From NCBI GenBank assembly GCA_963839205.1, contig CAWITU010000002.1:772-64771 (forward strand): a stretch of 64,000 nt of DNA, written 5' to 3'. The position numbers were made by a program, and so were the translations under genes. Each line of letters begins with the position of its first letter. Position 1 is the stretch's first letter. The notes under the pieces were generated by a model, which saw nothing but the letters and a program-made list of their open reading frames with translations, ran no database searches and was not told the origin of the DNA. The stretch comes from an uncultured bacterium. GTDB taxonomy: Bacteria; Patescibacteriota; Minisyncoccia; Phycocordibacterales; CAWITU01. Below are positions 1,590-63,851 of the stretch, piece by piece.

Positions 1590-2303
1590 TTAGAGGCTTA
1601 AAATAAACTGCTCGAGAGCGCTTTGAAGTTCGTAGGCTCCACGATGGGCTTCGTGATAAATCTCAACTAATTTTGACGAAAGATTTCTGAGTTCTTTTTC
1701 AGAATAATTCTTTGAGAAACCTTTTGCTTTAGAGTACACAAAAGGTTTGAGCCCAGAGGCGGCGGCCGAATCGGCCGCCGCCGCCAAATTCATTGATTTA
1801 ACCTGCCAAAAAAGAGTACCGTGAATTTCTTCTGGTACTGATCCATTCTTCATTGCTTGAAGATATAGCATCCACAAATTTTTCTTATCTCTCTTCCCTA
1901 AGGCGTCAGACAATCCAAATATATTAAATTCCTTTTTTACTACTTCGTCTTTTTCAGACTCTTGTATTTTCTCAGATTTTTTTTCTATCAATTTCAATGA
2001 GTCCTTATCCAGTTTTTGTTCAATGAAGATAAATATATGCTCCGAGGAAGATATCTCGTCTAGCTTTGAAATAATTCTTTCTTTTGCTTCATCATTTTCA
2101 AAAACATGATCAAAAAGCACAATGTACTTTGCTTCAAAAAGACCTTTTCCTTCAATAAAATTATCTAGTTCTGCTTCATTCCAATTATCCGATTCAATTT
2201 TATAGAAAGAAGCATTTGGTTTTCTCTTCAAAAGACTGTCCTTAAGTGCAGTCGCTTTTTCTCTCGTTTTTTGTCGATCTTGTCCGTAAAAAAAATAAAT
2301 CAT
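1590..2303 (-). CDS. holA: DNA polymerase III delta subunit-like (short HolA)
   Basis: N-terminal IYFFYGQD start and FGLSDALGKRDKKNLWMLYLQAMKNGSVPEEIHGTLFWQVKSM resemble the HolA clamp-loader delta subunit. It overlaps the polA stop by 4 nt (operon). Confidence 0.6.
   Translation of the reverse strand: MIYFFYGQDRQKTREKATALKDSLLKRKPNASFYKIESDNWNEAELDNFIEGKGLFEAKYIVLFDHVFENDEAKERIISKLDEISSSEHIFIFIEQKLDKDSLKLIEKKSEKIQESEKDEVVKKEFNIFGLSDALGKRDKKNLWMLYLQAMKNGSVPEEIHGTLFWQVKSMNLAAAADSAAASGLKPFVYSKAKGFSKNYSEKELRNLSSKLVEIYHEAHRGAYELQSALEQFILSL
1758..1782. repeat. intragenic GC-only hairpin, 11-bp perfect stem, 3-nt loop (in holA)
   Basis: GGCGGCGGCCG-aat-CGGCCGCCGCC. It encodes the low-complexity insert AAAADSAAAS, using GCG on one arm and GCC on the other. 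Confidence 0.9.
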
Positions 2304-4702
2304 AGTTGTTTCATAACTTGCCAGCTTGGTCCAACTTTTGCTTCTGCTTTCATCACAATTCCTTCTGTCTCACTAAGCGGCACCACATCTTCCATTACTT
2401 TTTTAATTTTAGTAGCGATACTTTCTAATACATCATCTTGTACTTCATATAATAATTCATCATGAACCTGAAGTAGTGGATAAACTTTTTCCTCTAATTT
2501 TTCTTTAACCAAAAATTCGTCCACTTTAATCATGGCTAATTTAACTATGTCAGCCCCAGTCCCTTGGACTGGGGCGTTTATTGCCATTCTTTCAGCCATC
2601 GCTTTTATAAAAGGTAATTTCGATTTAAGACCCGGAAAATATCTTCTCCTACCAAATAATGTTTCGGTATATCCCCTTCTCATAGCCTCTCCTTTTACAT
2701 TATCCAAATATTCAGCAAGCCCAGAAAACGTTTTAAAGTAATCATCATAAAATTTTTGAGCAGTTGCTCTATCTGATCCCAAATTAGTACGCAAAGCATT
2801 AACTCCCATACCATAAATAATTCCAAAATTTATAACCTTAGCTTGTCTTCTCATTTCTTTATCAACCTTATCAAGTGGAACCCCAAAAACTTCAGAGGCA
2901 ACTGCCGTATGAATATCCTCGCCTTCTTTAAATATAGAAATTAGTTTTTTATCTTTCGAAAGAAAAGCGGCAATACGAAGTTCCATTTGAGAATAATCCA
3001 ATGATAAGAGCGAAAATCCTTTTTCGGCAATAAAAGCCTTACGAATATTTCGGCCAAGTTCACTTTTGATTGGAATATTTTGTAAATTTGGATTTTGTGA
3101 AGCCATTCGTCCGGTAGTGGAACCAGTTTGAATTAGAGTGGTATGAAGTCTCCCGTCTTTTGCGACGAGATCTGGAATTGAATCAATATAAGTAGTTAAA
3201 AGTTTTGAAAGCTCACGATATTTGAGTACTTCTTTGATTATTGGGTGAAGATCAGTCATCTTTTCTAACTCTGATTCTTTGGTTGATTTTGCGCCACCAC
3301 CAGTTTTCTTCTGGTTCTTAACCTTAAGCCCCATTTTTTCAAACAAAATTACTCCGAGCTGTTTTGGTGAAGAGACATTAAATTTCTCCCCGGACATCTC
3401 CCAAATCTTTTCTTCAATACTTGAAAGTTCCTTATGATATTCCTTGGAAAGCCTTTTCAGTTCTGCGGTATCTACCTTTATTCCCCTCTTTTCAATTTTT
3501 CCAATTACAGAAATCAGGGGTAATTCAATTTTTTCAAAAACCTTTTCCAAATCTCTTTTTTTAAGCTCGGCAAAAATAATTTCTGAGGCTTTAGTAAAGT
3601 CCTCAATCTTTGCAAAACTAGTTATGTCCTCTAGGGTCGGATTCGTTATTTCTGAATTAATAATCCAAAGAGCTACTGCTGTTTTTTTAAATTCTATTTC
3701 ATCAATTTTCTGTACTTCTTTTACAGATTCTTTCTCAAGCGAAAATTCTTTCTGACTAATCCCTTGGGCTTCAAAAAAAATCTGATCGAGTCTGGCCGAT
3801 AGGCTTCTAAAATCTAAGTCAGCGAAAAATTTTTTAACCTCGTCCTTTGAAAAAGTTTCTTTCCAAGTTTTTTCTGGTAAATCAAAATCAATTGGAGCGT
3901 CTCGACGAATGGTCGCAAGCATTTTAGAAAATTCCGCCTCTTCCTCACCATCTTGAAGTAATTTAATTATTCTATCTGTTAAACCTTCTTTTTTAAATTC
4001 ATCTGGATTCTTTTTCAAAATGTTGTACATACTTTCTATCGTCCCAAATTTTTGAAGAAGGGTTGATGCGGTCTTTTCACCAATCCCAGCAATGCCAATT
4101 ATGTTATCTGACGGGTCGCCACGTAGTCCTTTAAAATCAGGAAGTAGTTTTGGTGGAAAACCAAAACGATCAACAACCGCTTTTTCGTCATACATAACTG
4201 TGTCATTAATTCCCTTTTTCAAAGTGTAAGCTTTGACTCTATCGCCATCTACCAATTGAAGTGTGTCCATATCTCCGGACGCAATAATAATTTCAATATC
4301 ATTATTGTCTTTCAACTTTTCAACAATCGTTCCCAACATGTCGTCAGCCTCAAACCCTGGCTTGTCATACATTGGAATATTAAAAGATTTAAAAACATCT
4401 CTTGATTTAATTATTTGGGAAATAAGTTCCGGATCAGCCTTTTTTCTACCAGCTTTGTATTCAGCATAAGCCTCGTGCCTATATGTAGGTTCCGGTAAAT
4501 CATAACAAGCGGCTAAATAGTCTGGTTTCAAATCATGAATAATTCGAAGGAGCATGGAAGATAGCCCATATAAACCTCCGGTTGCTTCTCCTTTGCTTGA
4601 GACAAAATCAGGAAGGGCGTGATACGCCCGGTGAAGAATTGCATGAGCATCAAAAAGAATTAGTCTTTTTCTATTTGATTGTGATTTCTCTTTCTTTGTC
4701 AT
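2300..4702 (-). CDS. polA: DNA polymerase I (5'-3' exonuclease + polymerase domains)
   Basis: 800 aa. Contains LILFDAHAILHRAYHAL (5' nuclease), DYSQMELRIAA (motif A), RRQAKVINFGIIYG (motif B) and LQVHDELLYEV (motif C). Confidence 0.95.
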   Translation of the reverse strand: MTKKEKSQSNRKRLILFDAHAILHRAYHALPDFVSSKGEATGGLYGLSSMLLRIIHDLKPDYLAACYDLPEPTYRHEAYAEYKAGRKKADPELISQIIKSRDVFKSFNIPMYDKPGFEADDMLGTIVEKLKDNNDIEIIIASGDMDTLQLVDGDRVKAYTLKKGINDTVMYDEKAVVDRFGFPPKLLPDFKGLRGDPSDNIIGIAGIGEKTASTLLQKFGTIESMYNILKKNPDEFKKEGLTDRIIKLLQDGEEEAEFSKMLATIRRDAPIDFDLPEKTWKETFSKDEVKKFFADLDFRSLSARLDQIFFEAQGISQKEFSLEKESVKEVQKIDEIEFKKTAVALWIINSEITNPTLEDITSFAKIEDFTKASEIIFAELKKRDLEKVFEKIELPLISVIGKIEKRGIKVDTAELKRLSKEYHKELSSIEEKIWEMSGEKFNVSSPKQLGVILFEKMGLKVKNQKKTGGGAKSTKESELEKMTDLHPIIKEVLKYRELSKLLTTYIDSIPDLVAKDGRLHTTLIQTGSTTGRMASQNPNLQNIPIKSELGRNIRKAFIAEKGFSLLSLDYSQMELRIAAFLSKDKKLISIFKEGEDIHTAVASEVFGVPLDKVDKEMRRQAKVINFGIIYGMGVNALRTNLGSDRATAQKFYDDYFKTFSGLAEYLDNVKGEAMRRGYTETLFGRRRYFPGLKSKLPFIKAMAERMAINAPVQGTGADIVKLAMIKVDEFLVKEKLEEKVYPLLQVHDELLYEVQDDVLESIATKIKKVMEDVVPLSETEGIVMKAEAKVGPSWQVMKQL
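2543..2565. repeat. intragenic hairpin, 10-bp perfect stem, 3-nt loop (in polA)
   Basis: GCCCCAGTCC-ctt-GGACTGGGGC, overlying the conserved INAPVQGTGAD segment. Confidence 0.85.
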
Positions 4703-8129: not shown

Positions 8130-9161
8130 ATGTCAAGCGATATAAAAAAAGTGGAACAAAAAGAAGGAATTACCCCTGACGAGGTTTTTCTTGATCAGAC
8201 CCTTCGCCCTTCCAAATGGGACGACTACATTGGTCAAAAAAATATTAAAGAAAACTTAAGAATTCTTTTGGGTGCTGCTATGGAGCGCAATCACCCACCG
8301 GAACACGTATTATTTTATGGGCCCCCAGGTCTCGGCAAAACAACGCTCGCCCACCTCATCGCCAAAGAAATATCTGCTCAAATAAAAGTTACTTCAGGGC
8401 CTGCAATTGAAAAAGTTGGAGACCTCGCCTCAATTCTTACCAATCTTTCAAAAGGAGACATTCTTTTTATTGATGAAATTCATAGACTTAACAAAACTAT
8501 TGAGGAAGTCCTCTACCCTGCTATGGAATCGGGTCAGCTTGATATTATTATTGGCAAAGGTCCATCCGCTAGAACGATCCAACTTGAGTTACCTTCGTTT
8601 ACTTTGATTGCGGCGACGACGAGGATTTCGCTTTTGTCGTCGCCGCTTAGATCCCGTTTTTCCGGCGGCGTCTTCCGACTGGAATTCTATACACCAAACG
8701 AAATTAAAGAAATTGTTAAGCGCTCCTCAAAAATATTAGGTGTTGAGATTCCGGAAGACGCCGCCTCCCTAATCGCCTCGCGCAGTCGTTTTACACCAAG
8801 AACTGCCAACTATCTCCTCAAACGAGTTCGCGACTTTGTTCAAATGAAGAAAGTTCCTCTAACTAAAGAAGCGGCAGATGAGGCTTTAAAACTTTTAAGC
8901 GTTGATTCTCTTGGTCTAACCTCGTCAGACAGAATAATTCTTGAAACCCTAATTAAGAAATTTGGTGGAGGGCCTGTAGGACTTAACACCCTTGCTTCGT
9001 CTCTATCAGAAGAGGAATCGACAATTGAGGAGTTTAATGAGCCATATCTGCTTCAATTAGGTCTTATCGAAAGGACACCACGAGGAAGATTGGCAACTTC
9101 CCTTGCCTACAAACACTTAGGGATTGAATTGCCCGAGAATTTGCAAGGAAAACTTCTTTAA
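8130..9161 (+). CDS. ruvB: Holliday junction branch migration helicase RuvB
   Basis: 343 aa with [12 protein letters not shown], Walker [16 protein letters not shown], and [15 protein letters not shown]. Confidence 0.95.
8610..8646. repeat. intragenic hairpin, 11-bp perfect GC-rich stem, 15-nt loop (in ruvB)
   Basis: GCGGCGACGAC...GTCGTCGCCGC, encoding the conserved [12 protein letters not shown]. Confidence 0.85.
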
Positions 9162-22710: not shown

Positions 22711-24555
22711 TTATTTGTTTAAATCTTTCTGCTCATTTTCTAATTTAGTTTGTTTGAAAGCTAGTATTTGGTGTGGATCAGAAGTAATAATTTGATCTTC
22801 AGTATAGGAAGCAATAATTTTGATGGCGACATGTTTTAGACCAGCAAAGAATATTCCCTCTCCTACATCTGATTCAAGAAGAAGATATTTTTCTTCATCT
22901 GTTAGGTTAAAGGTTCTTTGAACTTCATCAATTGAAGATGGGGATTGTTTAAGTAGAATTTGAATTGAGGAGTTTGTAATAATTGGAAGACCATATGGAG
23001 ATTTTAGGAAGTCCTCAACGTCTTGAGTAATTGTGGCGAGCCCCAAATAATATTTTCTTCCTCTTTTTGCAAGGCTCAAAAGAAATGAGGCAGTATCTTC
23101 TGATTTCATCATCCACCAAGCTTCATCAATAACAAGTAATCTTTTTTTCAATTCTTTTCTAATAGCATTCCAAATAAAATGCATGACGATGTACATGGCA
23201 ATTGGTTTTAATTCATCTTCCATATCACGAACTGAAAAGACTACGAATTTTTTGTTGATATCCACGTTTGTTGGCCTATTGATGAAACCAGCCCAAGTTC
23301 CTTTTGTATATTTTTCTAAACGTTGTACCAATGATTCCCCTCCTTCCATTCCAGCTAGAACTAATTCAAAGTCGGACATAAGTGGTGGTGCAACCTCAGC
23401 AAAATTTGATTCTGGAGTAATGTCTTTTAGAGCATATGTTTCGGTAATAGCTCGGTCAACAATTGAATCTTCTTCAGGAGTTAAGTCCTCCTAACATGAT
23501 TCGGAATAGACCAACCAGGTTAACAATGTTTGAGCGCAAAACATCGGCGGGCGATTCGTCTTCTCTGGCAGTAGGTAGGTCAAACGGATTAATGTGGTGT
23601 TCGGAGGTAAGCGAAATATTGAAGTATCGCCCGCCGGCTGCTTCAGCAAGATATTCGTATTCTTTTTCTGGGTCAATGACAATAACATCAGTATCAAACA
23701 TGAGAGATCGTAAAATTTCTAGTTTGGTTGCGTATGATTTACCAGATCCAGCTTTAGCAAAAGTCACAGAGTTGTAGTTTTCCAAGAGAAAATCTATCAA
23801 AAAGAATTAAACTTGAATTGTGTCGGTTAACTCCGTAAAGAATTCCTTTGTCGGATGTAAGGTCAAATGAAGTAAAAGGAAAAATACTAGAAAGTGGTGA
23901 AGAATTTAGTTTTGAATGCACATCCAAGCTCATCTGATGCAATTGGCATAACACTTCTAAAACCTTGTTCTTGTTGAAAAAGAGCTGGTTTTACATAAAC
24001 TAATTTAGCTTCAAGAATTGATTTGATTTCAGATTCAATTTTATCAAGTTCTCCTTGGCTGTCAGCATAAACAGAAATATATAATCCAACATCAAAGATT
24101 CTCTCTTGGGCTTGTTGTAAATCGTCTCGAAGTTTTTCAAGATCTTGGTAAGCAGTGTCTAATACGGGATCTCTAACTAACCCCTTCTCTTCTCTCATAT
24201 GAATTTGACTTTGAACTTCAGCCACTTTCTTTTGAAATTGTCGAAGAATTGTCGCTGTATCAATTGGATGAATGAATATAGAAATATCAAAGATTTTATC
24301 AAGATTGATTATTGGAGCAAACCAGCTTTCTGATAGAAATCTTGGGTATGAAATGATAAAAAATGTTCTGACAATTTTATCTCCAAAACTAAGTTCTCTA
24401 GGAGTAATCTTTAATGCCGATGGAGCAATAATATCTTTCAATTCCAAAATACCTGCATCATAAATATCCTGTGGAAGAATAGAGGTTATTGGTGTAGTTT
24501 TGGACTCTTGTTTTTTAAAAAAATCGCTTATTTTCATATTATTGGTTTTGATCAA
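22711..24555 (-). pseudogene. virB4: VirB4/TrbE/PrgJ-like type IV secretion ATPase, split into 4 frames
   Basis: Four fragments. 23887-24555 is the VirB4 middle domain (YPRFLSESWFAPIINL). 23754-23954 reads FPFTSFDL..ILYGVNRHNSSLILFDRF. 23474-23800 carries Walker A AKAGSGKSY. 22711-23379 plus upstream carries Walker B LLVIDEAWWMM and ATITQD. Three frame changes are needed. Confidence 0.85.
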
Positions 24556-32513: not shown

Positions 32514-33286
32514 AATTTTTCTCCAATCTTCTAAGGTTATATCTTCCGCTCTGACTTTAAGGTCAATATTATTTTTTTTAAATATTTCTTCTAGTTTTGT
32601 TTTAGGATAATCTCTTGGAAAGATTTCCAATTAGCATTTTGCGTTTGCTGGAAAAGCCAAGCTTGATTAGTTCGAAAAACTTTTTTTTGTCTATTTTGTT
32701 TTCGGTAAAAAAGTTTTTTGAGATGTTTCCAATCTGAATTATCGCCGAGTCAACTTTAGGACTCGGCGAGAAGAATCTTTTTGAAATAGTCTCAATGTAT
32801 TTTGGTTTTCCATATGCTTTTACGCTTATTGAGAGAATGCTTTCCTTATTATCTCTAGCAACAATTCTCTGAGCCACTTCTTTTTGAACAAGGACAACCA
32901 TTGTGATGGTTGATTATCTGATTCAAGAAATTTTCTAAAATTGCCCCAGTTATGTAATAAGGAATATTTGCTACCAACTTATACTTGCCAGTATTTTCTA
33001 GAAAATCCAAATTAGATTTCAAGAATATCATCGTGAACTAAGATTAATTTTTTGTCCTTAATTTCTCTTGAGAATTTTTCTTGAAGAACTGGCATCAATT
33101 CGTTGTCTTTTTCAACCGCAATAACTTGCGCCGCCTCTTTAAGTAAGAACTTCGGTTAAAGTGCCATATCCAGGCCCTATTTCCAGAACAATATCGTCAT
33201 TGACAATTGAGGCGGCGCCAGCAATTTTCTCCAATGCCCAGCTTGGATTTAAGAAAATTTTGACCTAATGATTTTTTAGCTTTCAT
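32496..33286 (-). pseudogene. rsmA: 16S rRNA (adenine1518/1519-N6)-dimethyltransferase RsmA/KsgA, at least 5 frameshifts
   Basis: MKAKKSLGQNFL, VLEIGPGYGTLTEVL, KLVANIPYYITGAILENFL, MVVLVQKEVAQRIVA and a C-terminal ...DLKVRAEDITLEDWRKILE are all present, but in six successive frames. Confidence 0.8.
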
Positions 33287-33362
33287 TTTTTTGTAATATT
33301 GAAATTAAAAATCTATAAAAATTGCTTTAGCTCCTGTTGGTCTTTCTTCTGCCTCCAGTAAA

Positions 33363-35254
33363 TTATCTGGCAATGTCAGTTAGAAATTGAGATGGAGTGT
33401 TTACTTGTTTACTGCCGTATATTGTTCTCATTTCTGTGTAGGAAAGAAATAATTTTTTCTTGGCTCGAGTTAAAGCAACATAAAAAAGTCTTCTCTCCTC
33501 CTCCGCTTCTTCTTCGGTCAAATTATCATCATCTTTTTCGTGCGGAAATAATCCCTCCTCGAGTCCGGTAATAAAAACATATTCAAATTCTAGTCCTTTT
33601 GAGGCATGCACTGTCATTAATTTTACCGCCCTCTCATTTTTAATCATACTGTCTTGATCGGTCGCGAGCGCGGCATCAGTCAAAAGCGCCGAAATTCCTT
33701 CTTCTGGTTCTAAAATATCATAACGGGTCGCCAAAGTTGCCAATTCTTTCATGTTTTCAATCTTATCTTCGTCCTCTTCTTTACCATGTTTATATAAATT
33801 TTCTGAACCTGTTTCACGAATAATAAATTTAATTGTTTCAGATGGTTTATTTTCTTTTGCAAATCAGCAATTTTTTGTAATAACTTTCGGAAAGACATAA
33901 CTCTTTCAAGAGTCGCTTCTGGCAGAGTTCCTTCAAGTCCAGAAAATATTTTTAATAGACTAACTTTTCCAATTCCTCTAGCTGGGGAATTAATAATTCT
34001 TTTTATGTCGGCATTTGATTCTGGATTAAGAGCAGCTCGAAGATATGATAGTACATCTTTAACCTCTTTTCTTTCAAAGAATCTGGTTCCCAAAAGTTGA
34101 TAAGGAATATTTTTTAAAAGAAAAGATTCTTCAATCACGCGTGATTGAAAGTTTGCACGATAAAGTACCGCAATTTCATTTGCTCTGACACCACTTTGAA
34201 TAAGTTCACGAGCCTTTCCAGAAATGAAATTGGCTTCATCAGCTTCGTCATATCCTTGAAAAAAGGTAATTTTTTCACCCTCAATATTTCTGGTAAATAG
34301 ATTTTTATCTTTTCGGTGAACATTTTTTGAGATAATTTGGTTCGCTGCAGTTAAGATTGTTTGAGTGGATCTGTAATTTTCTTCCAGAAGAATGACTTTG
34401 GCATCTGGGTAATCCTTTTCAAAATTTAGAATATTTTTAATATTTGCTCCTCGCCAGCTATAAATAGTTTGGTCAATATCTCCAACTACTGCAATATTTT
34501 TATATTTTTCTGCTAATTTTTTGGCAATCCGATATTGAACTTCGTTTGTATCTTGATATTCGTCAATGTGAATGTATTTCCAAGTTTCCTGATATCTTTC
34601 CAAAACTTCTTTATCTGATTCTAGAAGGAGCATTGTCTTGAGGAGAAGATCATCAAAGTCCAATGCTTTTTCTTCTTTAAGAATTCTTTCATAACCGTGC
34701 CAAATTTTTGCCGTAACATCAGTGATGTAATCACCTCCTTTTTCTTCTTCGTAACGGCTAGCTGTAAAACCGTTTCCTTTTTCTCTGGAAATTGTTCCGA
34801 GAATTCTATTGGCTTCAAATTGTTTTGGGTCGTACCCCGCTTCAGTCGTCGCTTCTTTGACAGCTCGTTTTGAATCGCCCCGGTCATAAATAGAGAAATG
34901 TTTTGGAAGTCCAAGTTTGGCAGCGTTGTCTTTAAGAATATGAACTCCTAAAGAGTGGAAGGTGCTCATGAACGGCCTCTCTAAGATACTGACTGGCCTG
35001 TTCAGTTCCTTATCTTCCGAAATGGCTTTCTCAACTCTCTCTTTCATTTCTTTAGCGGCTTTGTTGGTGAAGGTTATGGCCAGAATATTTGAGGGGGTTA
35101 CACCATCATGAATCAGGTTCAGGATGCGATGTGTGATAGTTTTGGTCTTGCCGGCGCCTGCGCCGGCAAGAATTAGAAGCGGCCCTCGTGTAGTGAGGGC
35201 CGCTTCCCTCTGTTTTTCATTTAATCCAATAAGATGAGCTTGTTTTTGATCCAT
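33363..35254 (-). CDS. pcrA: ATP-dependent DNA helicase PcrA/UvrD family, one frameshift near 33.85 kb
   Basis: Walker A LILAGAGAGKT, DEYQDTN, and the LEENYRS and VHASKGLEF motifs. ORF 33749-35290 goes out of frame at about 33850 and continues in frame with ORF 33363-33752. The likely start is ATG 35254 (MDQKQAHLIGLNEKQ). Confidence 0.85.
35146..35171. repeat. intragenic hairpin, 12-bp stem, 2-nt loop (pcrA Walker A)
   Basis: TCTTGCCGGCGC-ct-GCGCCGGCAAGA, encoding ILAGAGAGK. Confidence 0.8.
35176..35206. repeat. intragenic hairpin, 12-bp perfect stem, 7-nt loop (pcrA)
   Basis: GAAGCGGCCCTC-gtgtagt-GAGGGCCGCTTC, encoding EAALTTRGPL. Confidence 0.9.
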
Positions 35255-35354
35255 TGGGCCTACTATAGCACACCACATCTTTATCCCCATTGGGCTTTGA
35301 CAAGGGTCAGCATAAGTCTATGATAGAAGTATACCTACAGTAGACATAGATTTA

Positions 35355-36543
35355 ATGGCTCTACTAGGCCATTTTACTGAATTCCAGAATTATCATTATT
35401 TTAAGGCTTATTTTAGAATTTTTCTCCAAATATCGACAATTAATACCTATATTTATCGTTTTTACGGCTTTATCTACGCCTGTTTTTGCTTATGCTGGGG
35501 TCTTTTCAATTTTTTCTAATCTGTTTATTAATCCAACCGATGCTCAAGTGCAGAATGGGACATTGTCGGCAAATGTTGATTCTGAAACAGTTCCTTTGCT
35601 TCAAGCTGCAGTTAATAGTGATCCAAATCCAGATAAACAAAATGCTGTCGTCACAATTGCCGATAATGCCTTAGTTGATTCTTCCGGTCCAGAAGGAACC
35701 GCTTCGGATATAGATGGGGCTTCTAGTACTTCAGATCAGATTTCTATTTATGTTGTAAGAAGTGGAGATTCGTTAAGTTCAATTGCCTCAATGTTTGGCG
35801 TTACTTCGAATACTATTCGGTGGGCCAACGATATTCCAGCAGGAACATCTATTCAGGAAGGTCAAACCCTAGTTATTCTCCCAGTTTCTGGTGTTGAACA
35901 TACTGTTAAGAAAGGTGAAACACTCCAATCTATTGCTAAATCATATAAGGGGGATGTGAACGAAATTGCTCAGTTTAACAACATCGCTGATAATTCTAGT
36001 CTTGCTGTTGGGGACACTCTAATTATCCCTGATGGTGAGTCTACAGTTGTCAGTCAAACTCCTAGTTCTTCATCAAAAAAATCAAACACCTCAAATTCTG
36101 TAATCGGTAACTCTTCTGAAGGTGGAATTGTGACGGGTGGATCTTTGAGTGAGGTAATCTTGGATACGTTGTCTTCAAGAGAGGAAGTTGATACGACTGG
36201 ATATTTCACATGGCCAATTAAAAATGCAATTGAGACTCAAGGACTCCACGGACATAACGCTGTTGATCTCGCAGCCGCATATGGTAGCCCAATCCTAGCC
36301 GCCGCTTCTGGAAAAGTTATAGTGAGCCGTAACTCAGGTTGGAATGGAGGCTATGGTAGTTATATTGTTATCAGTCATTCTAATGGAACACAAACTTTGT
36401 ACGCTCACCTTAGTAAAAATTATGCTTCTGTGGGCCAGGAAGTAACACAAGGCCAAAAAATTGGTGCTGAAGGAGAAACAGGGCTTGCAACGGGCCCGCA
36501 TCTTCACTTCGAAGTTCGTGGTGGCAATAATCCTTTTATTTAG
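35355..36543 (+). CDS. secreted LysM-domain M23 family metallopeptidase (N-terminal frameshift or non-canonical start)
   Basis: Two LysM repeats (YVVRSGDSLSSIASMFGV, HTVKKGETLQSIAKSY) and the M23 motifs HNAVDLAA and GPHLHFEV. The signal peptide (IPIFIVFTALSTPVFAYA) is in frame with ORF 35548-36543 but lacks a start. The ATG at 35355 is one frame off, across a T5 run. Confidence 0.8.
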
Positions 36544-38090
36544 GATTCACTTTTCTTCGGTCTATACTGTAGGGCTTCTAATAAGTGTTTATCTTCTACT
36601 TTTTCCTTTTTATCTAAATCGGCTATTGTTCGTCCGAGTTTAATAATTCTGTGATACGAACGTGCTGATAAGTCTAATTTGGTAGCAAAATTATTTAATG
36701 TTTCCAGTGCTCCTTTTTCCAAATTAGCTAATTTTATTATTTCTTTAACCGGGATTTCACTATTTAAATGAATATTTGATGGCAGGTGTTTAAGACGGAT
36801 TCTCTGAATCTCTCTGGCTTGTCTAACGCGCTCGACAACCGAGAAACTTTTTTCACTTTGGTTGTCGAGCGCTAGTTTCTGGTGATCAACAACCGGCGCC
36901 TCTATCCACATATCAATTCTATCCATTATTGGCCCAGATATTTTACGATTATAGTGACTGAGTTCTCTGATACTACAAACGCATGATTTGTTTTTAACTC
37001 CCTGATTGCCACAGGGACACGGATTCATTGTGGCAATCAAAATAAACTGTGCAGGAAAATGCGAAGAACTTTTTACTCTTGAAATAGTAATCATCCGGTC
37101 CTCTAGCGGTTGGCGAAGGGATTCAATAACTCGTTTTTCAAATTCTGGGAATTCATCTAAAAACAAAATCCCTCTGTGGGCTAAAGTAATTTCTCCAGGC
37201 TTTGGGTTTGTACCTCCTCCGACCATGGCAACGTATGAAACGCTATGGTGCGGAGATCTAATGGGAGGTTTAACGATTAGACTTTCTTTAAGAGAGCCTG
37301 CAACTGAATGAATACTGGTAACTTCAAGAATTTCTTCAAAGCTCAAGGGCGGCAGGAGGCCTTTGAAAGCTTTTGCTAACATGGTCTTGCCAGTACCGGG
37401 CGGACCGAAAAGAACAATGTTGTGGCCTCCTGCCGCTGCTATTTCTAATCCCCTTTTAGCCATTTCTTGGCCTTTGATGTCTGATAGATCAATTTCATTT
37501 GGTTCTTTGGTAATAATTATTTTTGTTGGAGGCGCGGCCACCATGGGTGGCCGCGCCTCACTTTTCTCCCCTTTTATATTTACATGATTAATAACTTCTT
37601 CTAATGTGTTTGCTCCAAATATTGAAATATCTCTAATGAGGGCTGCTTCCTCGGTGTTTTCTTTTGGTAAAAATATTTCTTTGAATCCAGCGCGTTTTGC
37701 CTCAATCACCTGTGGCAAAACGCCCCTAATCTTCTGTAGTGTACCGTCTAGTGATAACTCCCCAATAAAAATTCTTTTATCAGCTTTAAATGAAATCTCT
37801 TTTGATGCTAGTAGATATGCCATCGCAATTGCTAAATCAAAAATTGGACCCTCTTTTTTAAGATCTGCTGGAGCCAAAGAAACAATTATCTTTTGGTTTT
37901 TACTTTTTGGTGATGAAAAGCCGCTGTTTTTAATTGCAGATGAAACTCTGTCTCGAGACTCCTCAACTGCTTTATCAGGAAGCCCTACAATAGAAAAAGC
38001 GTGGAGACCTTTTGAAAGATCCACCTCCACGCTTATGATCTGAGCCTTAAGAAGTGAATGTTGGGCACTCCAAACTTTAGCAAAACTCAT
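36540..38090 (-). CDS. comM: YifB/ComM family Mg-chelatase-like AAA+ ATPase
   Basis: 516 aa. Lon-like N-terminal domain, Walker A GPPGTGKTM, LFLDEFPEF, and the cysteine cluster NPCPCG. Confidence 0.9.
   Translation of the reverse strand: MSFAKVWSAQHSLLKAQIISVEVDLSKGLHAFSIVGLPDKAVEESRDRVSSAIKNSGFSSPKSKNQKIIVSLAPADLKKEGPIFDLAIAMAYLLASKEISFKADKRIFIGELSLDGTLQKIRGVLPQVIEAKRAGFKEIFLPKENTEEAALIRDISIFGANTLEEVINHVNIKGEKSEARPPMVAAPPTKIIITKEPNEIDLSDIKGQEMAKRGLEIAAAGGHNIVLFGPPGTGKTMLAKAFKGLLPPLSFEEILEVTSIHSVAGSLKESLIVKPPIRSPHHSVSYVAMVGGGTNPKPGEITLAHRGILFLDEFPEFEKRVIESLRQPLEDRMITISRVKSSSHFPAQFILIATMNPCPCGNQGVKNKSCVCSIRELSHYNRKISGPIMDRIDMWIEAPVVDHQKLALDNQSEKSFSVVERVRQAREIQRIRLKHLPSNIHLNSEIPVKEIIKLANLEKGALETLNNFATKLDLSARSYHRIIKLGRTIADLDKKEKVEDKHLLEALQYRPKKSES
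36828..36872. repeat. intragenic hairpin, 13-bp perfect stem, 19-nt loop (comM)
   Basis: GCGCTCGACAACC ... GGTTGTCGAGCGC. Confidence 0.9.
37005..37039. repeat. intragenic hairpin, 10-bp perfect stem, 15-nt loop (comM)
   Basis: GATTGCCACA ... TGTGGCAATC, over IATMNPCPCGNQ. Confidence 0.8.
37349..37436. repeat. intragenic long-range inverted repeat, 13 bp perfect, 62-nt spacer (comM, brackets Walker A)
   Basis: GCGGCAGGAGGCC (37349-37361) pairs with GGCCTCCTGCCGC (37424-37436). Confidence 0.9.
37539..37569. repeat. intragenic hairpin, 14-bp perfect GC-rich stem, 3-nt loop (comM linker)
   Basis: GAGGCGCGGCCACC-atg-GGTGGCCGCGCCTC, encoding EARPPMVAAPP. Confidence 0.95.
37692..37723. repeat. 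intragenic hairpin, 10-bp perfect stem, 12-nt loop (comM)
   Basis: GCGTTTTGCC ... GGCAAAACGC. Confidence 0.8.
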
Positions 38091-39473: not shown

Positions 39474-41585
39474 TTAGACTTTAATGAAATTGGGATCAGC
39501 TTGTTTAATTGAAAGATTGATTCTTCCTCGGTCATCTACCTCTTTTACAACCACTGGAACCTTGTCTCCCTCTTTTAAATATTTGGAAACTTGATCAATT
39601 CTTGTTGGAGAAATTTCGGAAATATGAACTAAACCTTCAGTGTTGTAACCAATTCTAACAAATGCCCCGAAATCTAGGATTTTTACAACTTCTCCTTCAA
39701 ATCTTTCTCCCTTTTTGTATTCGTGTGTCATGCCCTCAATAATATCTCTAGCTTTTTCAGCTGAACCATTTTTACCAGTCACAAATACGGTGCCATCATC
39801 TTCAATATCAATTTCAGCTCCAGTTTTTTCTTTAATTTCTTTAATTGTTTTTCCGCCTGAACCAATAACCATTCCAATTTGATCTGGTTTAATCTTAATT
39901 GAAAGAATTTTTGGAGCATTTGGAGACAAGTCTGCGCGAGGTTTTGCAATTTCTTTTTCAATAACATCAAGAATCTGAAGTCTGGCTTTTGTAGCCGCTT
40001 CAAGTGCTTCACTTAGAATCTTGAGTGGAATCCCTCCGACTTTAACATCCATTTGTATAGCGGTTACGCCCTGTCTTGTTCCTGCGACTTTGAAATCCAT
40101 GTCACCGTGTTCATCTTCGGGTCCTTGAATGTCTGTAAGAAGTGTATATTTTCCATCCTGAGCATAATTAGGAGATAACATTAGTCCTGAAGCAATTCCA
40201 GCAACCGGTGCTTTGATTGGTACTCCTCCATCCATAAGAGCAAGTGTACTTCCACAAACTGATCCCATTGAAGTTGATCCGTTTGATGCCATTGATTCTG
40301 AAACTAATCTGATTGTGTAAGGAAAAATTTCTTTTGCTGGGATAACCGCGAGTAAAGCTTTCTCGGCAAGATTACCGTGACCAACCGCCCTTCTATTTAT
40401 TCCTCCCATTCTGCCAGTTTCGCCAGAAGAAAAAGGTGGAAAATTATAGTGATGCATAAATCTTTTCTTTTCTTGAATTTCCATACCATCAATTGTCTGT
40501 GAATCCTGTGGTCCACCAAGGGTTAATGCTGATAGGACGTGGGTCCCTCCTCTATAGAAGATTCCTGAGCCATGAAGAATCGGTGAAATACCACCAGCTC
40601 TTGCGAAAAGTGGTCTTAGCTCATCAATTTTACGACTGTCTGCTCTTCGGTTTTTTTCAATTGCCTCTACGTGAAGTATATTGTTAACCATTTCTTCAAA
40701 ATATTCCTTAGCAGGAAACGTATCTCCTTCAGGAAATTTTTCTGTGAAGAGAGTTATCCATTTTTCTTCAAGAGCGTGGATATTATCCTTACCTGCGCCA
40801 GAAAAAACTGCGTTGTCTAATTCTTTTTCAATATTTTCCTTGAATAGTGAGATGACTTCTTCTGAAAGCACCGCTTTTGGAAATTCTTTCTTAACTTTTC
40901 CAATTTCTGTGATTATTTTCTTTTGGAAATCTTGGATTTTTTCTATTTCCGCTGAAGCTAAAGTTAAAGTTTTGTTAACTAGGTCATTTGATACTTCCTT
41001 AGCTGCCGTTTCAATCATATTAATGTTGCCGTCTTTACCACAGGCTACAATTTCTAATTCAATATCATCAGAATGTCTGATTTCGTAAGTTGGGTTTAAA
41101 AGTAAATCATCTTTTTCTTTTAATTTTCCAATTCTAACTGCGCTAGCTGGTCCAGCCCATGGAATATCTGATGTACCAAGTGCTAGTGATGCTGCAATTA
41201 CTCCTAATACATCTGGGTCTTCCTGATCGATTGAAAGAACAGTGATGACAACTTGGATTTCGTTTCTGATGTGTTGCTCGAAGAGTGGCCGAATCGTGCG
41301 GTCCACGATTCGGCCAGACAAAATTGCTTCATCGGACGGTCTGCCTTCACGTCTTGTAAACTGTCCACCTAGAATTTTTCCAGCTGCGTAAAATCTTTCT
41401 TCGTAATCAACAACGAGTGGTAAATAGTTTGTGTCCTTTGGATTTTTGGACATTACGGCCGTCGCTAGAACGACTGTGTTTCCACAACTAACCATCACTG
41501 ATCCATTTGCTTGATCAGCTAAATCATTGAATTCTGCTTTTAAAGTCTTACCACCAACCTCCAACGAGTATTCTTTTTTATTCAT
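39474..41585 (-). CDS. pnp: polyribonucleotide nucleotidyltransferase (PNPase)
   Basis: 703 aa. Two RNase PH domains (GRIVDRTIRPLF, FPPFSSGE), then a KH domain (IGSGGKTIKEI) and an S1 domain. Confidence 0.95.
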   Translation of the reverse strand: MNKKEYSLEVGGKTLKAEFNDLADQANGSVMVSCGNTVVLATAVMSKNPKDTNYLPLVVDYEERFYAAGKILGGQFTRREGRPSDEAILSGRIVDRTIRPLFEQHIRNEIQVVITVLSIDQEDPDVLGVIAASLALGTSDIPWAGPASAVRIGKLKEKDDLLLNPTYEIRHSDDIELEIVACGKDGNINMIETAAKEVSNDLVNKTLTLASAEIEKIQDFQKKIITEIGKVKKEFPKAVLSEEVISLFKENIEKELDNAVFSGAGKDNIHALEEKWITLFTEKFPEGDTFPAKEYFEEMVNNILHVEAIEKNRRADSRKIDELRPLFARAGGISPILHGSGIFYRGGTHVLSALTLGGPQDSQTIDGMEIQEKKRFMHHYNFPPFSSGETGRMGGINRRAVGHGNLAEKALLAVIPAKEIFPYTIRLVSESMASNGSTSMGSVCGSTLALMDGGVPIKAPVAGIASGLMLSPNYAQDGKYTLLTDIQGPEDEHGDMDFKVAGTRQGVTAIQMDVKVGGIPLKILSEALEAATKARLQILDVIEKEIAKPRADLSPNAPKILSIKIKPDQIGMVIGSGGKTIKEIKEKTGAEIDIEDDGTVFVTGKNGSAEKARDIIEGMTHEYKKGERFEGEVVKILDFGAFVRIGYNTEGLVHISEISPTRIDQVSKYLKEGDKVPVVVKEVDDRGRINLSIKQADPNFIKV
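41286..41316. repeat. intragenic hairpin, 13-bp perfect stem, 5-nt loop (pnp)
   Basis: TGGCCGAATCGTG-cggtc-CACGATTCGGCCA, encoding the conserved SGRIVDRTIRP. Confidence 0.95.
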
Positions 41586-57500: not shown

Positions 57501-58816
57501 TATTTTTTAAGTTCCAAATATTTTTTTAGTTCCTCTTTGGCAACTTCAGCGTCACTCCAAATAGTTCGAGTATTGTTTGGTCCCATGATGTATGGGTCGG
57601 TTCCTTTGCCTGTTATGATTACCGTATCACCAGTTTTAGCCTTAGATACAGCCCTCGCAATCGCTTCGCGTCTCTTCATAATTATTTCATATCGTTTCTC
57701 AGTGATTCCCTTAGCCATATCTGCCAGTATGTTCTCGGGTTTTTCATCGTAAGGGTCCTCGTCAGTCAGAATTATTTCGTCACAGTAGGTGTCAGCAATT
57801 TTACCCATCTCAGGTCTTTTCCATTTGTCGCGGCCGCCGCCTGTGTTGCCTAGAACACAGACGCGGCGGCCGGTCTTGAATACTTCATAAATTTTTTTAA
57901 GAGAGTCTGGGGTGTGAGCGTAATCAACAATTACTCTGAAATCTTGTTTCAAAAATAATGGATCAGTTTCATCAAGTGTTATCTTTTGTACTCGGCCAAG
58001 GATTCCTTTAAATTTTTCTAAGGCATTTTTGATTGTATCTAAGTGCACACCTTCTTGCGTCTTCGTATAAGTAATTGCTGCAAGAATATTTGAGATATTA
58101 AAAATCCCTGGCAAGTTTGTACTTATTTTTTCTCCAAGGTAAGTTATTTCAGAACCTTCAGTACCCAAGACAAATGGTTCGGCTTCAGCTAACGAATATG
58201 TTAATTTTTCAAGACCATCAATCTTCAGGAATCTTTCACTTTCTTTATCATCCGCATTAGCTACCAAAATCTTTCTTGGTTTATTAGATTTTGCTAATGC
58301 TAGAGCTATGCTTAGTTTAGCCCTAACGTATTTTTCGTATGAGCCATGCGATTCAATATGTTCGGGTGAAAGGTTGGTGAAAAGCAGAGCGTCAGAATCA
58401 ATAAATCGATGTCGGTATTGTTTTGCTCCCTCGGAAGTCATTTCTAAAATTGCATAGTCACATTTTGCAGTCACTGCATCTCTTAAAAATTTCTGAACAA
58501 AAAATCTTCCTGGAATCGTCATTTTGTATTTATTCGCTCTTGACTCATCCCCAATTTTAAATCGAACAGTTCCTGCGAGTGACGTTTTGTACCCAGCTTC
58601 TTCCAGGATGGCATTTACTACTTCAACTGTTGAGGACTTTCCTTTGGTACCTGTGACCATTACAACTTTAATATTTCGTGAAGGAAAGTTATAAATGACT
58701 GCCCCTGAAAGTGCTAATAGAAAGTGGTAGGAAGGTTGAGCAAAGGCAAAAATATTTCTCGGAATATATTTTTTTATTGTTCGAAGAACATTGTCCGCAC
58801 TCATATTATTTTCCAA
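57500..58816 (-). CDS. murE: Mur ligase family protein (MurE-like)
   Basis: VTGTKGKSST P-loop, IVDYAHTPDSL, VLGNTGGGRDKWKRPEMG, and LTDEDPYDE (DNPR-like). Confidence 0.7.
   Translation of the reverse strand: MENNMSADNVLRTIKKYIPRNIFAFAQPSYHFLLALSGAVIYNFPSRNIKVVMVTGTKGKSSTVEVVNAILEEAGYKTSLAGTVRFKIGDESRANKYKMTIPGRFFVQKFLRDAVTAKCDYAILEMTSEGAKQYRHRFIDSDALLFTNLSPEHIESHGSYEKYVRAKLSIALALAKSNKPRKILVANADDKESERFLKIDGLEKLTYSLAEAEPFVLGTEGSEITYLGEKISTNLPGIFNISNILAAITYTKTQEGVHLDTIKNALEKFKGILGRVQKITLDETDPLFLKQDFRVIVDYAHTPDSLKKIYEVFKTGRRVCVLGNTGGGRDKWKRPEMGKIADTYCDEIILTDEDPYDEKPENILADMAKGITEKRYEIIMKRREAIARAVSKAKTGDTVIITGKGTDPYIMGPNNTRTIWSDAEVAKEELKKYLELKK
57831..57872. repeat. intragenic hairpin, 10+7 bp stem with 2-nt bulge, 6-nt loop (murE-like)
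   Basis: CGGCCGCCGC-CTGTGTT-gcctag-AACACAG-ac-GCGGCGGCCG, encoding RRVCVLGNTGGGRD. Confidence 0.9.
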
Positions 58817-63113: not shown

Positions 63114-63851
63114 ATGAAATGCATCGGTATTGATTATGGTAGTAAGAATGTTGGGATTGCGGTGGGGGACAGCGAGCACGGCCTAGCTTTTCCTAAGGCC
63201 GTGCTCGCTAACTCCTCGCGCCTTCTTGCGGAAATCAAAGAAATCGTGACGCAAGAAGGCGCGGGAAAAATCATCCTCGGAGAATCTCAAGATTTTAAAG
63301 GAGTGGACAATCCGATAATGAAGAAAATTCTCTCTTTTAAGAAAGACCTTGAGGATGATTTAAAGATTCCAGTTATTCTTCACCCAGAATTTATGACTTC
63401 AGCTGAGGCAGAAAGATTGCAGGGCAAAAATGACATGATTGATGCTTCAGCTGCCGCACTAATTCTCAAAAGTTTTTTTGATAATAAAAAGAATGAAATC
63501 GTCAAAAGTGAAAAACCCGAAGTCACTTTTGACGATTTTTCTAAAATCCAAATTAAGGTTGGTGAAATTTTGTCAGTCGAGAAGGTTCCAGCAACTGATA
63601 AACTTTTAAAACTGTCTGTTAATTTTAATGAGGCATCACCTCGCCAAATCATTTCTGGTATCGCCCTTCATTTTTCTGACCCAGCGGTGCTTGTTGGCCA
63701 AAAATGTTTTTTCGTAACTAATTTACAGTCTAGAACTATTCGAGGGTATGAAAGCAACGGTATGCTCTTCGCAGTTGGTGGAAAGGATGATATCCCATTC
63801 TCATTAATTAAAGCAGGTCCAGAAATTCCCCCAGGAACTCCCGCAAATTAA
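63114..63851 (+). CDS. ruvX: fusion protein: YqgF/RuvX nuclease domain + C-terminal tRNA-binding (Trbp111/CsaA-type OB) domain
   Basis: The N-terminus MKCIGIDYGSKNVGIAVGD...LPEFMTSAEA is YqgF-like. The C-terminus FSKIQIKVGEILSVEKVPATDKLLKLSVNFNE..RQIISGIALHF..LVGQKCFFVTNLQSRTIRGYESNGMLFA is the tRNA_bind fold. Confidence 0.8.
   Translation: MKCIGIDYGSKNVGIAVGDSEHGLAFPKAVLANSSRLLAEIKEIVTQEGAGKIILGESQDFKGVDNPIMKKILSFKKDLEDDLKIPVILHPEFMTSAEAERLQGKNDMIDASAAALILKSFFDNKKNEIVKSEKPEVTFDDFSKIQIKVGEILSVEKVPATDKLLKLSVNFNEASPRQIISGIALHFSDPAVLVGQKCFFVTNLQSRTIRGYESNGMLFAVGGKDDIPFSLIKAGPEIPPGTPAN
63171..63209. repeat. intragenic hairpin, 14-bp perfect stem, 11-nt loop (ruvX)
   Basis: AGCGAGCACGGCCT-agcttttccta-AGGCCGTGCTCGCT. 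Confidence 0.95.
63217..63263. repeat. intragenic hairpin, 14-bp perfect stem, 19-nt loop (ruvX)
   Basis: CGCGCCTTCTTGCG ... CGCAAGAAGGCGCG, extendable by a G-U and a C-G pair. Confidence 0.95.

Follow-up and report, generated by a model that had tools for sequence, protein, structure and literature searches.

Perfect GC-rich inverted repeats within comM and other protein-coding genes of a Patescibacteria lineage

Introduction

Why should a single bacterial gene contain several strong hairpins within its coding sequence? A sequence-only reading of a 64-kb stretch of DNA from an uncultured Patescibacteria bacterium, referred to here as the window, listed five such hairpins within comM/yifB and offered two explanations, namely gene-specific post-transcriptional control or a hotspot of whatever process generates these structures. 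The locus therefore raises the questions of whether the hairpins are a property of comM, whether they are shared with its orthologues, and at which level, DNA or RNA, they originate.

Results

Six perfect inverted repeats in comM

The gene was identified as comM/yifB by precomputed Pfam matches (PF13541, PF01078, PF07728 and PF13335) and by the motifs GPPGTGKT, DEFPEF and NPCPCG, and its orthologues are annotated as members of the YifB family. Six perfect inverted repeats of 10–14 bp were found within it:

comM/yifB, 36540..38090, minus strand: intact ORF of 516 aa with Lon-like ChlI, Mg-chelatase AAA+ and C-terminal domains
Stem 1, 36828-36840/36860-36872: 13 bp, loop 19; GCGCTCGACAACC / GGTTGTCGAGCGC; encodes ALDNQ...SVVER; -18.4 kcal/mol as single-stranded DNA (ssDNA), z -6.1
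Stem 2, 37003-37013/37029-37039: 11 bp, loop 15; TGATTGCCACA / TGTGGCAATCA; over LIAT-MNPCP-CGNQ; ssDNA z -4.1
Stem 3, 37349-37361/37424-37436: 13 bp, loop 62; GCGGCAGGAGGCC / GGCCTCCTGCCGC; ssDNA z -4.4
Stem 4, 37529-37542/37546-37559: 14 bp, loop 3; GAGGCGCGGCCACC / GGTGGCCGCGCCTC; ssDNA -21 kcal/mol, z -7.9
Stem 5, 37692-37701/37714-37723: 10 bp, loop 12; GCGTTTTGCC / GGCAAAACGC; over GVLPQVIEAKR; ssDNA z -5.2
Stem 6, 37997-38006/38025-38034: 10 bp, loop 18; AAGCGTGGAG / CTCCACGCTT; over ISVEVDLSKGLHAF; ssDNA z -5.6

All five of the hairpins listed earlier exist, and a sixth, at 37997-38034, had been missed. The lengths assigned to four of them (13, 13, 14 and 10 bp) stood, whereas the second measured 11 rather than 10 bp. 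The 14-bp stem occupies 37529-37559, 10 nt away from the 37539-37569 first given for it, and its G+C content is 12/14 where it had been described as all-GC. That the stems overlay conserved residues was borne out for NPCPCG and for the Walker A flanks: the arms of stem 3 bracket the Walker A codons (AAGGH ... GLLPP) and derive nearly entirely from synonymous codon choice. Stem 4 encodes EARPPMVAAPP in the variable inter-domain linker. Stem 5, which reaches 13 bp if one T.T mismatch is allowed, encodes the same peptide as in the nearest relatives and differs from them by synonymous codons alone (Leu CTT->TTG, Arg AGA->CGC), while the substitutions I418V and K/R419V in stem 1 were confined to the focal lineage. 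An independent Logan assembly of 4.9 kb (ERR10755936) carried the same sequence but for 1 nt and included all eight stems of this stretch; the sole mismatch between both assemblies lay at a hairpin apex.

When each comM stem was folded as ssDNA, z-scores of -4.1 to -7.9 were obtained and 0 of 200 shuffles folded as well. At the RNA level, a 951-nt stretch of comM gave a z-score of -8.8, with all five of the previously listed stems present in both the minimum free energy (MFE) and the centroid structure. Folding of the mRNA against shuffles, a check proposed together with the original list, thus indicated that the comM stems are real and non-random: the whole gene reached z = -6.2 in the sense and -6.8 in the antisense direction, compared with -2.7 to +2.5 among orthologues.

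The stems are not shared with comM orthologues

The comparison set comprised 79 orthologues and the five nearest relatives, the latter at 66–69% amino-acid identity; searches of genome, metagenome and protein collections gave no relative above 69%. All six stems were absent from the 79 orthologues and from the five nearest relatives. Codon-aligned pairing in the 79 orthologues was overall no better than that of slid controls. At the stem 2 (NPCPCG) site, a mean of 7.3 of 11 pairs counting G.U was obtained (6.0 in slid controls), and judged by this pairing the site appears to be a natural quasi-palindrome in the orthologues. The site at 37997 showed a mean of 5.6 of 10 pairs against 3.6 in controls, and the remaining four sites were at control level.

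The linker segment encoded by stem 4 had been taken for an in-frame insertion. The alignment does not support this, because the focal comM is of the same length as, or one codon shorter than, the 79 orthologues and five nearest relatives in this region; what is seen is a substitution-rich replacement of xKKIxxQPKT / EERPVYIEKAPP by EARP-PMVAAPP. The sequence-only reading had also named an outcome that would count against it, in which orthologues lack all the stems while the linker peptide is conserved for protein reasons. The first half of this outcome was observed, but the linker peptide proved to be unconserved as well.

Gene-specific post-transcriptional control was likewise not supported, given that pairing in orthologues was at control level, folding was strand-symmetric and U-tails were missing. 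Further evidence against it comes from the spread of the stems along comM and from the presence of like stems in at least 12 genes besides comM, as well as in pseudogenes. The comM stems were neither conserved or covarying nor sense-specific, as a conserved cis-regulatory mRNA structure would be, and nothing indicates a comM-specific regulatory role.

GC-rich perfect stems are in excess throughout the window

Stems were defined as perfect, at least 10 bp long and at least 60% GC, with a loop of no more than 100 nt. By this definition, the 64-kb window contains 26 GC-rich perfect stems, where 0.2–0.3 are expected from dinucleotide shuffles, either global or in 200-nt blocks. The excess is restricted to inverted symmetry: 28 inverted repeats were counted at k=10 against 1 direct, 1 mirror and 3 complement repeats, and 20 inverted repeats against 0 at k=11. 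Since the direct, mirror and complement counts are so low, and the excess persists over 200-nt block shuffles, the composition of GC-rich patches was excluded as its cause. The stems outside comM include the following:

uvrD/pcrA 5' end, 35146..35206: two adjacent perfect stems, 35146-35171 over Walker A ILAGAGAGKT and 35176-35206 over EAAL...GPL
ruvB, 8610..8765: two adjacent perfect stems, 11 bp with loop 15 and 14 bp with spacer 74
ruvX-tRNA-binding fusion gene, 63171..63263: two adjacent 14-bp perfect stems
pnp (PNPase), 41286..41316: 13-bp perfect stem over SGRIVDRTIRP
holA (DNA pol III delta), 1758..1782: 11-bp all-GC stem over AAAADSAAA
polA, 2553..2575: 10-bp stem over APVQGTGA
Fragmented rsmA/ksgA pseudogene, 33128..33218: 10-bp GC-rich stem, spacer 71
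Fragment of a VirB4/TraG-like ATPase, 23545..23636: 11-bp GC-rich stem, spacer 70
Mur ligase gene, 57831..57872: 10-bp all-GC stem

The gene fpg also bears a stem, and the broken genes with stems are the rsmA fragments, the virB4 fragment and the frameshifted uvrD, whose apparent frameshift lies near 33850. The longest arms measured 14 bp within genes and 17 bp anywhere in the window. Every stem has a different sequence, and no shared sequence or repeat family was found among them. Their spacer lengths are bimodal with a second mode at 62–74 nt; intragenic stems also occur in adjacent pairs and are spread evenly along genes with neither a 5' nor a 3' preference. About 24% of both coding DNA and synonymous opportunity belongs to replication, repair and recombination genes, and these contain 15 of the 22 intragenic stems. 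The genes for RNase Y and PNPase are also located in the window.

Overall stem density was 0.41/kb, compared with 0.047/kb in 1.64 Mb from 160 related loci, and in coding DNA it was 0.327/kb against 0.029/kb in related Paceibacteria. This difference of about 11-fold marks the excess as a property of one lineage rather than a general background. Stems that were not GC-rich had the same frequency in the window and in relatives. A mismatch-tolerant finder, applied to GC-rich stems of at least 11 pairs with loops of no more than 30 nt, returned 14 perfect stems and 4 with mismatches, and 0 of the 14 were extended by G.U or mismatched pairs. Perfection cannot by itself tell a DNA-level from an RNA-level cause, as the ordinary terminators of the window are perfect too.

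The proposal that comM holds the densest cluster in the window was confirmed, with 6 of the 22 intragenic stems where about 0.65 are expected by length and 0.81 by synonymous opportunity (Poisson P ~1e-4, or ~0.01 allowing for 80 genes). Of the two explanations first offered, the hotspot is the one that survived, comM being a local hotspot of a window-wide process. The comM stems form part of a lineage-specific, window-wide and presumably genome-wide population of coding palindromes.

Composition and coding of the arms

Third codon positions had a GC content of 0.75 in the stem arms and 0.30 elsewhere. Relative to the near-clade consensus, changes in the comM arms ran strongly from AT to GC (31 AT->GC, 5 GC->AT), whereas the rest of comM showed 102 AT->GC and 138 GC->AT changes (Fisher 6e-7). 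Conserved residues are encoded by both arms, as in AAGGH/GLLPP, LIAT/CGNQ, AGAGAGK and GRIV/TIRP. Registers that place a wobble position opposite a constrained one were used by 17 of the 22 stems, where equal use of all three registers would give 14.7, although this sample is small.

Individual sites suggest that one arm was altered towards the other. For stem 4, the nearest relative (L082) has the same GCGCCTC in the outer half of the 3' arm, while 4 of 7 positions are changed in the 5' half complementary to it. Residue K/R419, conserved in 79/79 orthologues and in the nearest clade, is Val in the focal ComM; 2–3 nt were changed within this one codon, and the result matches the partner arm GAC. 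UvrD residue 31, which lies within the stems, is Ala here and Val in 23/23 orthologues, and the codon change (GTC-type to GCC) turns a potential U.G pair into C-G. The substitution A354T in ComM was also considered as a G.U-to-A-U correction, with Ala invariant in the 79 orthologues, but it was dropped because Thr354 is common to the stemless nearest clade. Single template-switch events are not reconstructable at this distance, as the nearest relatives are 66–69% identical and the comparisons behind the ancestral states are saturated.

Discussion

Possible origins of the stems

We infer that the stems arose by quasipalindrome correction through template switching, at a rate that is elevated in this lineage and with protein constraint acting as a filter, and we give this reading an even chance of being correct. 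When a GC-rich partial inverted repeat is present in the strand being synthesized, whether in replication or in repair, that strand would fold back, use its partner arm as the template for a few to about a dozen nucleotides and then rejoin the original template. Arm complementarity would grow with each such event, and new mismatches would be corrected likewise, so that stems would remain perfect and lengthen. Most events would be discarded by purifying selection on the protein, and the survivors would be those absorbed by synonymous codons, with a wobble position opposite a constrained one, or falling in tolerant residues such as those of the comM linker. The raised rate that this would entail is possibly tied to the decay of repair genes, for example the frameshifted uvrD. 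As AT-rich stems are not raised, the reading requires the assumption that GC-rich arms alone fold stably enough to nucleate. Counting against template switching, the concentration in one gene class and the adjacent pairs look more like targeting or selection than uniform mutation. It is conceivable, though on balance doubtful, that perfect GC-rich hairpins are written into the genes of this lineage, and kept there, by an active and as yet undescribed mechanism or requirement with a preference for replication, repair and recombination genes. This could take either of two forms, a self-perpetuating "structure-only" selfish element or a structure-based DNA or RNA code with a second spacing of ~62–74 nt.

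Selection could instead act on the structures themselves. If the hairpins served in mRNA by slowing ribosomes, blocking 3'-5' exonucleases or RNase Y, or marking processing sites, they would define a post-transcriptional regulon mainly of DNA-metabolism genes. We consider this unlikely: strong folds are predicted (z -8.8 for the 951-nt stretch and -6.2 for the gene, both MFE and centroid structures containing the stems), the excess is limited to thermodynamically stable GC-rich stems, the gene-class bias and adjacent pairs would fit, and the window encodes RNase Y and PNPase, but neither conservation nor covariation was seen in the 79 orthologues or five nearest relatives, and the antisense strand folds as strongly. 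Moreover, G.U pairs, which RNA tolerates, never extend the perfect stems, and conserved residues were replaced although a wobble pair or another site would do. The even spread along genes, the lack of U-tails and the stems in pseudogene fragments also speak against an mRNA function. Perfect hairpins or cruciforms that form when DNA is single-stranded or supercoiled, and that a structure-specific protein recognizes, would account for strict Watson-Crick perfection and strand symmetry, both of which they need; they could act in replication or recombination pausing, in self-marking during transformation, or in autoregulation by junction-binding proteins. The gathering of stems in genes for junction or structure processing (ruvB, ruvX, uvrD, comM, polA and fpg) and the second spacer mode of 62–74 nt are in line with such roles. 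Nevertheless, neither a common motif nor a conserved position unites the stems, the window revealed no lineage-specific protein that might bind them, and the gene-class enrichment is post hoc and cluster-driven. Cruciform extrusion is also poor for arms of 10–14 bp, and selected DNA structures appear improbable.

The two remaining explanations are both very improbable. In-frame insertion of small mobile palindromes, of the kind represented by Rickettsia palindromic elements or yeast mitochondrial GC clusters, would explain GC-rich palindromes in an AT-rich genome, some of them in linkers, but it is contradicted at every site with alignable orthologues: there are no indels, the sites in the comM linker, uvrD and pnp have gained no length, such conserved residues as AAGGH, GAGAGKT and NPCPCG are encoded by the arms, and the stem sequences all differ and form no family. 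An artefact of amplification, sequencing or assembly, such as inverted chimeras from MDA, could be suspected from the several frameshifted genes in the window, which might reflect assembly quality, and from the position of the only inter-assembly difference at a hairpin apex. Against this, the second assembly (Logan, ERR10755936) repeats 4.9 kb with all eight stems, and reading frames are open with conserved residues encoded through synonymous codons, which is not expected of random chimeras.

Relation to known palindromes

Quasipalindrome correction has been invoked before. Ripley in 1982, the Lovett laboratory for the thyA hotspot, and Ladoukakis and Eyre-Walker in 2008 reportedly attributed an excess of inverted repeats to this process. 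In bacterial genomes, perfect short inverted repeats are over-represented and template switching has been held responsible (Lavi et al. 2018, PMC5941160). The stems described here share with those repeats perfect arms far above chance with an excess rising with arm length, a predominance of perfect over imperfect stems, the lack of a sequence family, and changes that appear to make one arm match the other. They differ in that the focal excess lies inside coding DNA, whereas the E. coli analysis concerned non-coding regions (PMC5941160), and in being limited to GC-rich stems, the genome itself having 38% GC. Template-switch mutations are known to create or extend hairpins and to alter proteins (Monttinen & Loytynoja 2022, PMC8794818; yeast coding inverted repeats, PMC8604942). 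Multi-nucleotide homogenisation of arms, by-product amino-acid changes and lengthening of existing stems appear to be common to those cases and ours; there, single events were reconstructed on resolved phylogenies, while here template switching is deduced from direction and pattern.

The closest analogue is the coding palindromes of Nematomorpha (hairworm) mitochondria, which show all-or-none perfection and for which arm conversion or template switching was invoked (2019, PMC6649704). In both systems, perfect repeats lie within intact protein-coding genes with conserved residues encoded by both arms, stems are gained or lost between related lineages, and the lineage is apparently fast-evolving or decaying. 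The hairworm preference for wobble-opposite-constrained registers may extend to the present stems (17/22, in a small sample). The present stems are, however, on a bacterial chromosome, form GC-rich islands in an AT-rich genome, and have arms of 10–17 bp instead of the tens to hundreds (up to 284 bp) seen in hairworms. In-frame mobile palindromes are discussed in the same study (PMC6649704). Like the focal stems, these are hairpin-forming DNA within ORFs of reduced, AT-rich genomes, but the focal stems have perfect arms, are not insertions and belong to no family. Rickettsia palindromic elements and yeast mitochondrial GC clusters are inserted sequence families that decay over time. No description of coding hairpins in Patescibacteria, nor any paper on the sample accession, turned up in our literature search.

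If genome-wide, the pattern would represent a natural case of a bacterial lineage loading essential genes with perfect hairpins, in which arm-matching takes precedence over synonymous codon usage and also over residue conservation. It would supply a tractable bacterial parallel to the unexplained hairworm palindromes, and, should the selfish "structure-only" form be true, their first counterpart on a bacterial chromosome. It would also allow the reach of template-switch mutation in shaping proteins and codon usage to be measured, and could connect a particular mutational signature with the decay of repair genes in the reduced genomes of Patescibacteria. In such genomes, strong intragenic RNA-fold z-scores should not be equated with regulatory RNA structure.

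Terminators and tRNAs in the window

The intergenic stems combine a GC-rich stem with a U-tract and are ordinary terminators. Among intragenic stems, a tail with at least 6 T in 10 follows 1 of 22 in the sense and 4 of 22 in the antisense direction, and intrinsic terminators of either orientation were rejected as an explanation on these counts. Some plus-strand tails of intragenic stems are T-rich. An Rfam scan of the window returned six tRNAs and nothing else. Thermophily was discarded as a cause of GC-rich stems, since tRNA GC content is 55%, equal to that of relatives.

Perfect inverted repeats in comM and across the window

All five inverted repeats that a sequence-only reading had reported in comM/yifB were found, all of them perfect, and a sixth stem enlarged the set. 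The 14-bp stem lies 10 nt away from the position assigned to it by that reading and is not all GC, as 12 of its 14 pairs are G+C.

comM/yifB and its inverted repeats
36540-38090, minus strand: comM/yifB, 516-aa ORF with Lon-like ChlI, Mg-chelatase AAA+ and C-terminal domains
36828-40/36860-72: 13 bp, loop 19 nt, perfect
37003-13/37029-39: 11 bp, loop 15 nt, perfect
37349-61/37424-36: 13 bp, spacer 62 nt, perfect, flanking Walker A on both sides
37529-42/37546-59: 14 bp, loop 3 nt, perfect
37692-701/37714-23: 10 bp perfect (13 bp if one T.T mismatch is allowed)
37997-38006/38025-38034: 10 bp, the sixth stem

Folded as single-stranded DNA, the stems had z-scores of -4.1 to -7.9 each, and none of 200 shuffles equalled any of them. 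The RNA z-score of a 951-nt comM region was -8.8, with five stems present in the minimum free energy and centroid folds alike. Whole-gene folding gave -6.2 for the sense and -6.8 for the antisense strand, against -2.7 to +2.5 for 12 orthologous comM genes.

The 64-kb window (37.8% GC) contains 52 perfect stems of at least 10 bp with loops of up to 100 nt, compared with 10.4 ± 3.3 in dinucleotide shuffles. For stems with at least 60% GC (GC-rich), the count was 26 against 0.2 expected, and 200-nt block shuffling agreed. Only inverted symmetry shows the excess: k=10 gave 28 inverted, one direct, one mirror and three complement repeats, while k=11 gave 20 inverted repeats and none of the other symmetries. 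Stems between genes are ordinary terminators bearing T-tails; the anomalous class comprises about 20 stems within genes. Among GC-rich stems with at least 11 pairs and loops of up to 30 nt, 14 were perfect and four bore mismatches, and none of the perfect ones was lengthened by G.U or mismatched pairs. Judged on this 64 kb, hairpin density is a trait of the genome and not of comM. The earlier suggestion that the gene is a hotspot of a structure-generating process is supported. comM itself carries six stems where 0.65-0.81 are expected.

Genes with intragenic stems
DNA metabolism:
1593-2303: holA
2303-4702: polA
8130-9158: ruvB, two stems
33752-35290 and 33363-33752, minus strand: uvrD, two stems
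36540-38090, minus strand: comM, six stems
56571-57500: fpg
63114-63848: ruvX, two stems
Other:
22714-23800, minus strand: virB4 fragment
32602-33290, minus strand: rsmA fragments
Class I tRNA synthetase, pnp, Mur ligase and two unknown genes

Lineage specificity of the stems

The source organism is a Paceibacteria/Nomurabacteria-like Patescibacteria MAG, and its closest comM orthologues in genome, metagenome and protein collections were 65-69% identical. The density of GC-rich perfect stems was 0.047/kb across 160 related loci (1.64 Mb) versus 0.41/kb in the window, and 0.029/kb versus 0.327/kb in coding DNA; stems that were not GC-rich were equally common in both sets (0.27 against 0.33/kb). 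No GC-rich perfect stems occurred in comM of the five nearest relatives (L082 and L162-L165), some of which are syntenic. None of the six comM stems is kept in orthologues: in a codon alignment of 79 orthologues, pairing at the six homologous sites was no better than at slid control positions. Thermophily was considered as a cause of the GC-rich stems and rejected, because tRNA GC content (55%) equals that of the relatives.

Fit of the arms to the coding sequence

The peptide EARPPMVAAPP, previously described as looking like an in-frame insertion, is not one; it sits in the variable linker that joins the Lon-like domain to the AAA+ domain. The window linker is among the shortest, one codon shorter than that of the nearest clade (EERPVYIEKAPP in L082). 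L082 shares GCGCCTC, the outer 3'-arm half of the 14-bp stem, but differs at 4/7 sites in the complementary 5' half, a pattern that arm-to-arm copying would give.

Well-conserved residues beneath the arms are kept, and synonymous codons supply the pairing (GC3 0.75 in arms, 0.30 elsewhere); in 17/22 stems the register places wobble positions opposite constrained ones. At moderately conserved columns, 72% of arm residues were off-consensus versus 51% of non-arm residues. ComM as a whole departs from consensus at 8.1% of columns conserved at 90% or above (orthologue mean 1.7%). Residue 419, K/R in all 79 orthologues and the nearest clade, is Val in the window ComM, and the 2-3 nt change behind it fits the partner codon GAC. 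Val has likewise replaced I418, another arm replacement unique to this lineage. UvrD V31, invariant in 23/23 orthologues, is Ala. Measured against a consensus for the five nearest relatives, arm changes comprised 31 AT->GC and five GC->AT, versus 102 and 138 in the rest of comM (Fisher 6e-7). ComM A354T was considered as a wobble-to-Watson-Crick correction, Ala being invariant in 79 orthologues, yet the argument was withdrawn because the nearer relatives all carry Thr354 without the stem.

Origin of the stems

The combined features point to a DNA-level process and not to selected mRNA structure, because symmetry is exclusively inverted, perfection is all-or-none and strands behave alike; sequence family, indels and positional conservation are all lacking; stems are spread evenly along genes and present in pseudogene fragments; and directional changes match the partner arm. 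Intra-strand template switching (quasipalindrome correction), the established process with these features, has about an even chance of being the source. On this mechanism, an excess confined to GC-rich stems requires that GC-rich arms alone form folds of sufficient stability to set off a switch. Bacteria in general have too many short perfect inverted repeats, an excess that has been attributed to template switching (PMC5941160), and the process is able to form hairpins and preserve them (PMC8794818). Among described phenomena, the nearest are the "coding palindromes" seen in mitochondrial genes of Nematomorpha, which share binary perfection with the window stems and show gain and loss between species and register bias; for these, conversion of arms in a lineage whose genome maintenance has weakened was proposed by their authors (PMC6649704). 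The kinds of repeat are known, and here they reach unusual density in genes of a Patescibacteria chromosome.

Selection for structure stays alive as a rival because of the GC-rich-only excess, gene class, the load of comM, pairing of stems and spacer modes. Replication, repair and recombination genes hold 15/22 intragenic stems with ~24% of coding DNA and 24% of synonymous "opportunity", an enrichment that is post hoc and partly cluster-driven; the large non-DNA genes PBP, pilB and RNase Y hold none. Adjacent pairs occur at 8610/8664, 35146/35176 and 63171/63217. Spacer lengths are bimodal: 21 fall at 3-22 nt and five at 62-74 nt (a tRNA accounts for one of the five), and the range 23-61 nt is empty.

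GC-rich perfect stems with long spacers (62-74 nt), in coding sequence or pseudogenes
8664-8765
23545-23636
33128-33218
37349-37436

These features would suit selection on RNA-level structure, which strand symmetry, the lack of positional conservation and the stems in pseudogene fragments nevertheless make unlikely. Gene-specific post-transcriptional control of comM, one of the two readings first suggested, is not supported, given control-level pairing in orthologues, folding of both strands and stems throughout the window. The GC-rich-only excess, gene class, stem pairing and spacer modes could also reflect selected DNA-level structure, which we consider rather improbable. Insertion of a mobile element would leave a sequence family or indels, and is very improbable as no family was seen, nor any length gain at the comM linker, uvrD or pnp sites. 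An artefact is equally hard to credit, since an independent Logan assembly (L001, ERR10755936) is the same over 4.9 kb but for one base.

Broken genes and other observations

Over 4,942 bp that assembly departs from the window only at 35159, with a synonymous A/G where the UvrD Walker-A hairpin has its apex; this is either a genuine polymorphism or an error in sequencing brought about by an inverted repeat that carries a GGC motif. The uvrD/pcrA gene is frameshifted near 33850 (region 33700-33900): the N-terminal ORF reads on into ~30 residues that are out of frame, the C-terminal domain lies in another frame, and 12 relatives have the parts in a single frame. Possible explanations are a pseudogene, a split gene and an indel in the assembly, and the break may bear on any raised rate of template switching or mutation. 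The rsmA/ksgA region (16S rRNA dimethyltransferase) bears two GC-rich stems and consists of at least four overlapping ORF fragments, which points to a pseudogene or a poor assembly stretch; both fragments compared with Pfam matched RrnaAD. The VirB4/TraG-like P-loop ATPase is likewise fragmented, with one ORF matching Pfam P-loop_TraG at positions 27-103 and another at 186-344, and its region has one GC-rich stem and is otherwise stem-poor. A T4SS pilin-like gene (20424-21170) lies nearby among small ORFs, and the 19-31 kb region resembles a type IV secretion or conjugative element in decay. These broken genes, together with the departures of ComM from consensus at conserved columns, may be linked to genome decay. 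Under relaxed selection or impaired repair, template switching could become more frequent and its products could also be retained.

In PolA only ~130 residues separate the 5'-3' exonuclease domain from the polymerase domain, and a Pfam search of the protein detected no 3'-5' exonuclease domain. A stand-alone GIY-YIG nuclease-domain protein (78 aa, 1213-1449, minus strand) adjoins tRNA-Lys. Although the window includes dnaA and dnaN (14450-17109 and 15372-17187), around which DnaA-box-like sites form a small cluster, the origin position is ambiguous because the cumulative GC skew minimum and a gene-orientation switch lie near 42 kb. The acceptor stem of tRNA-Ser(UGA) (61617-61718) is lengthened by 8 perfect bp between the 5' leader and the 3' trailer (ATCAGTGC / GCACTGAT), forming a 15-bp helix with the discriminator position included, which could be a processing signal or a further case of stem extension.
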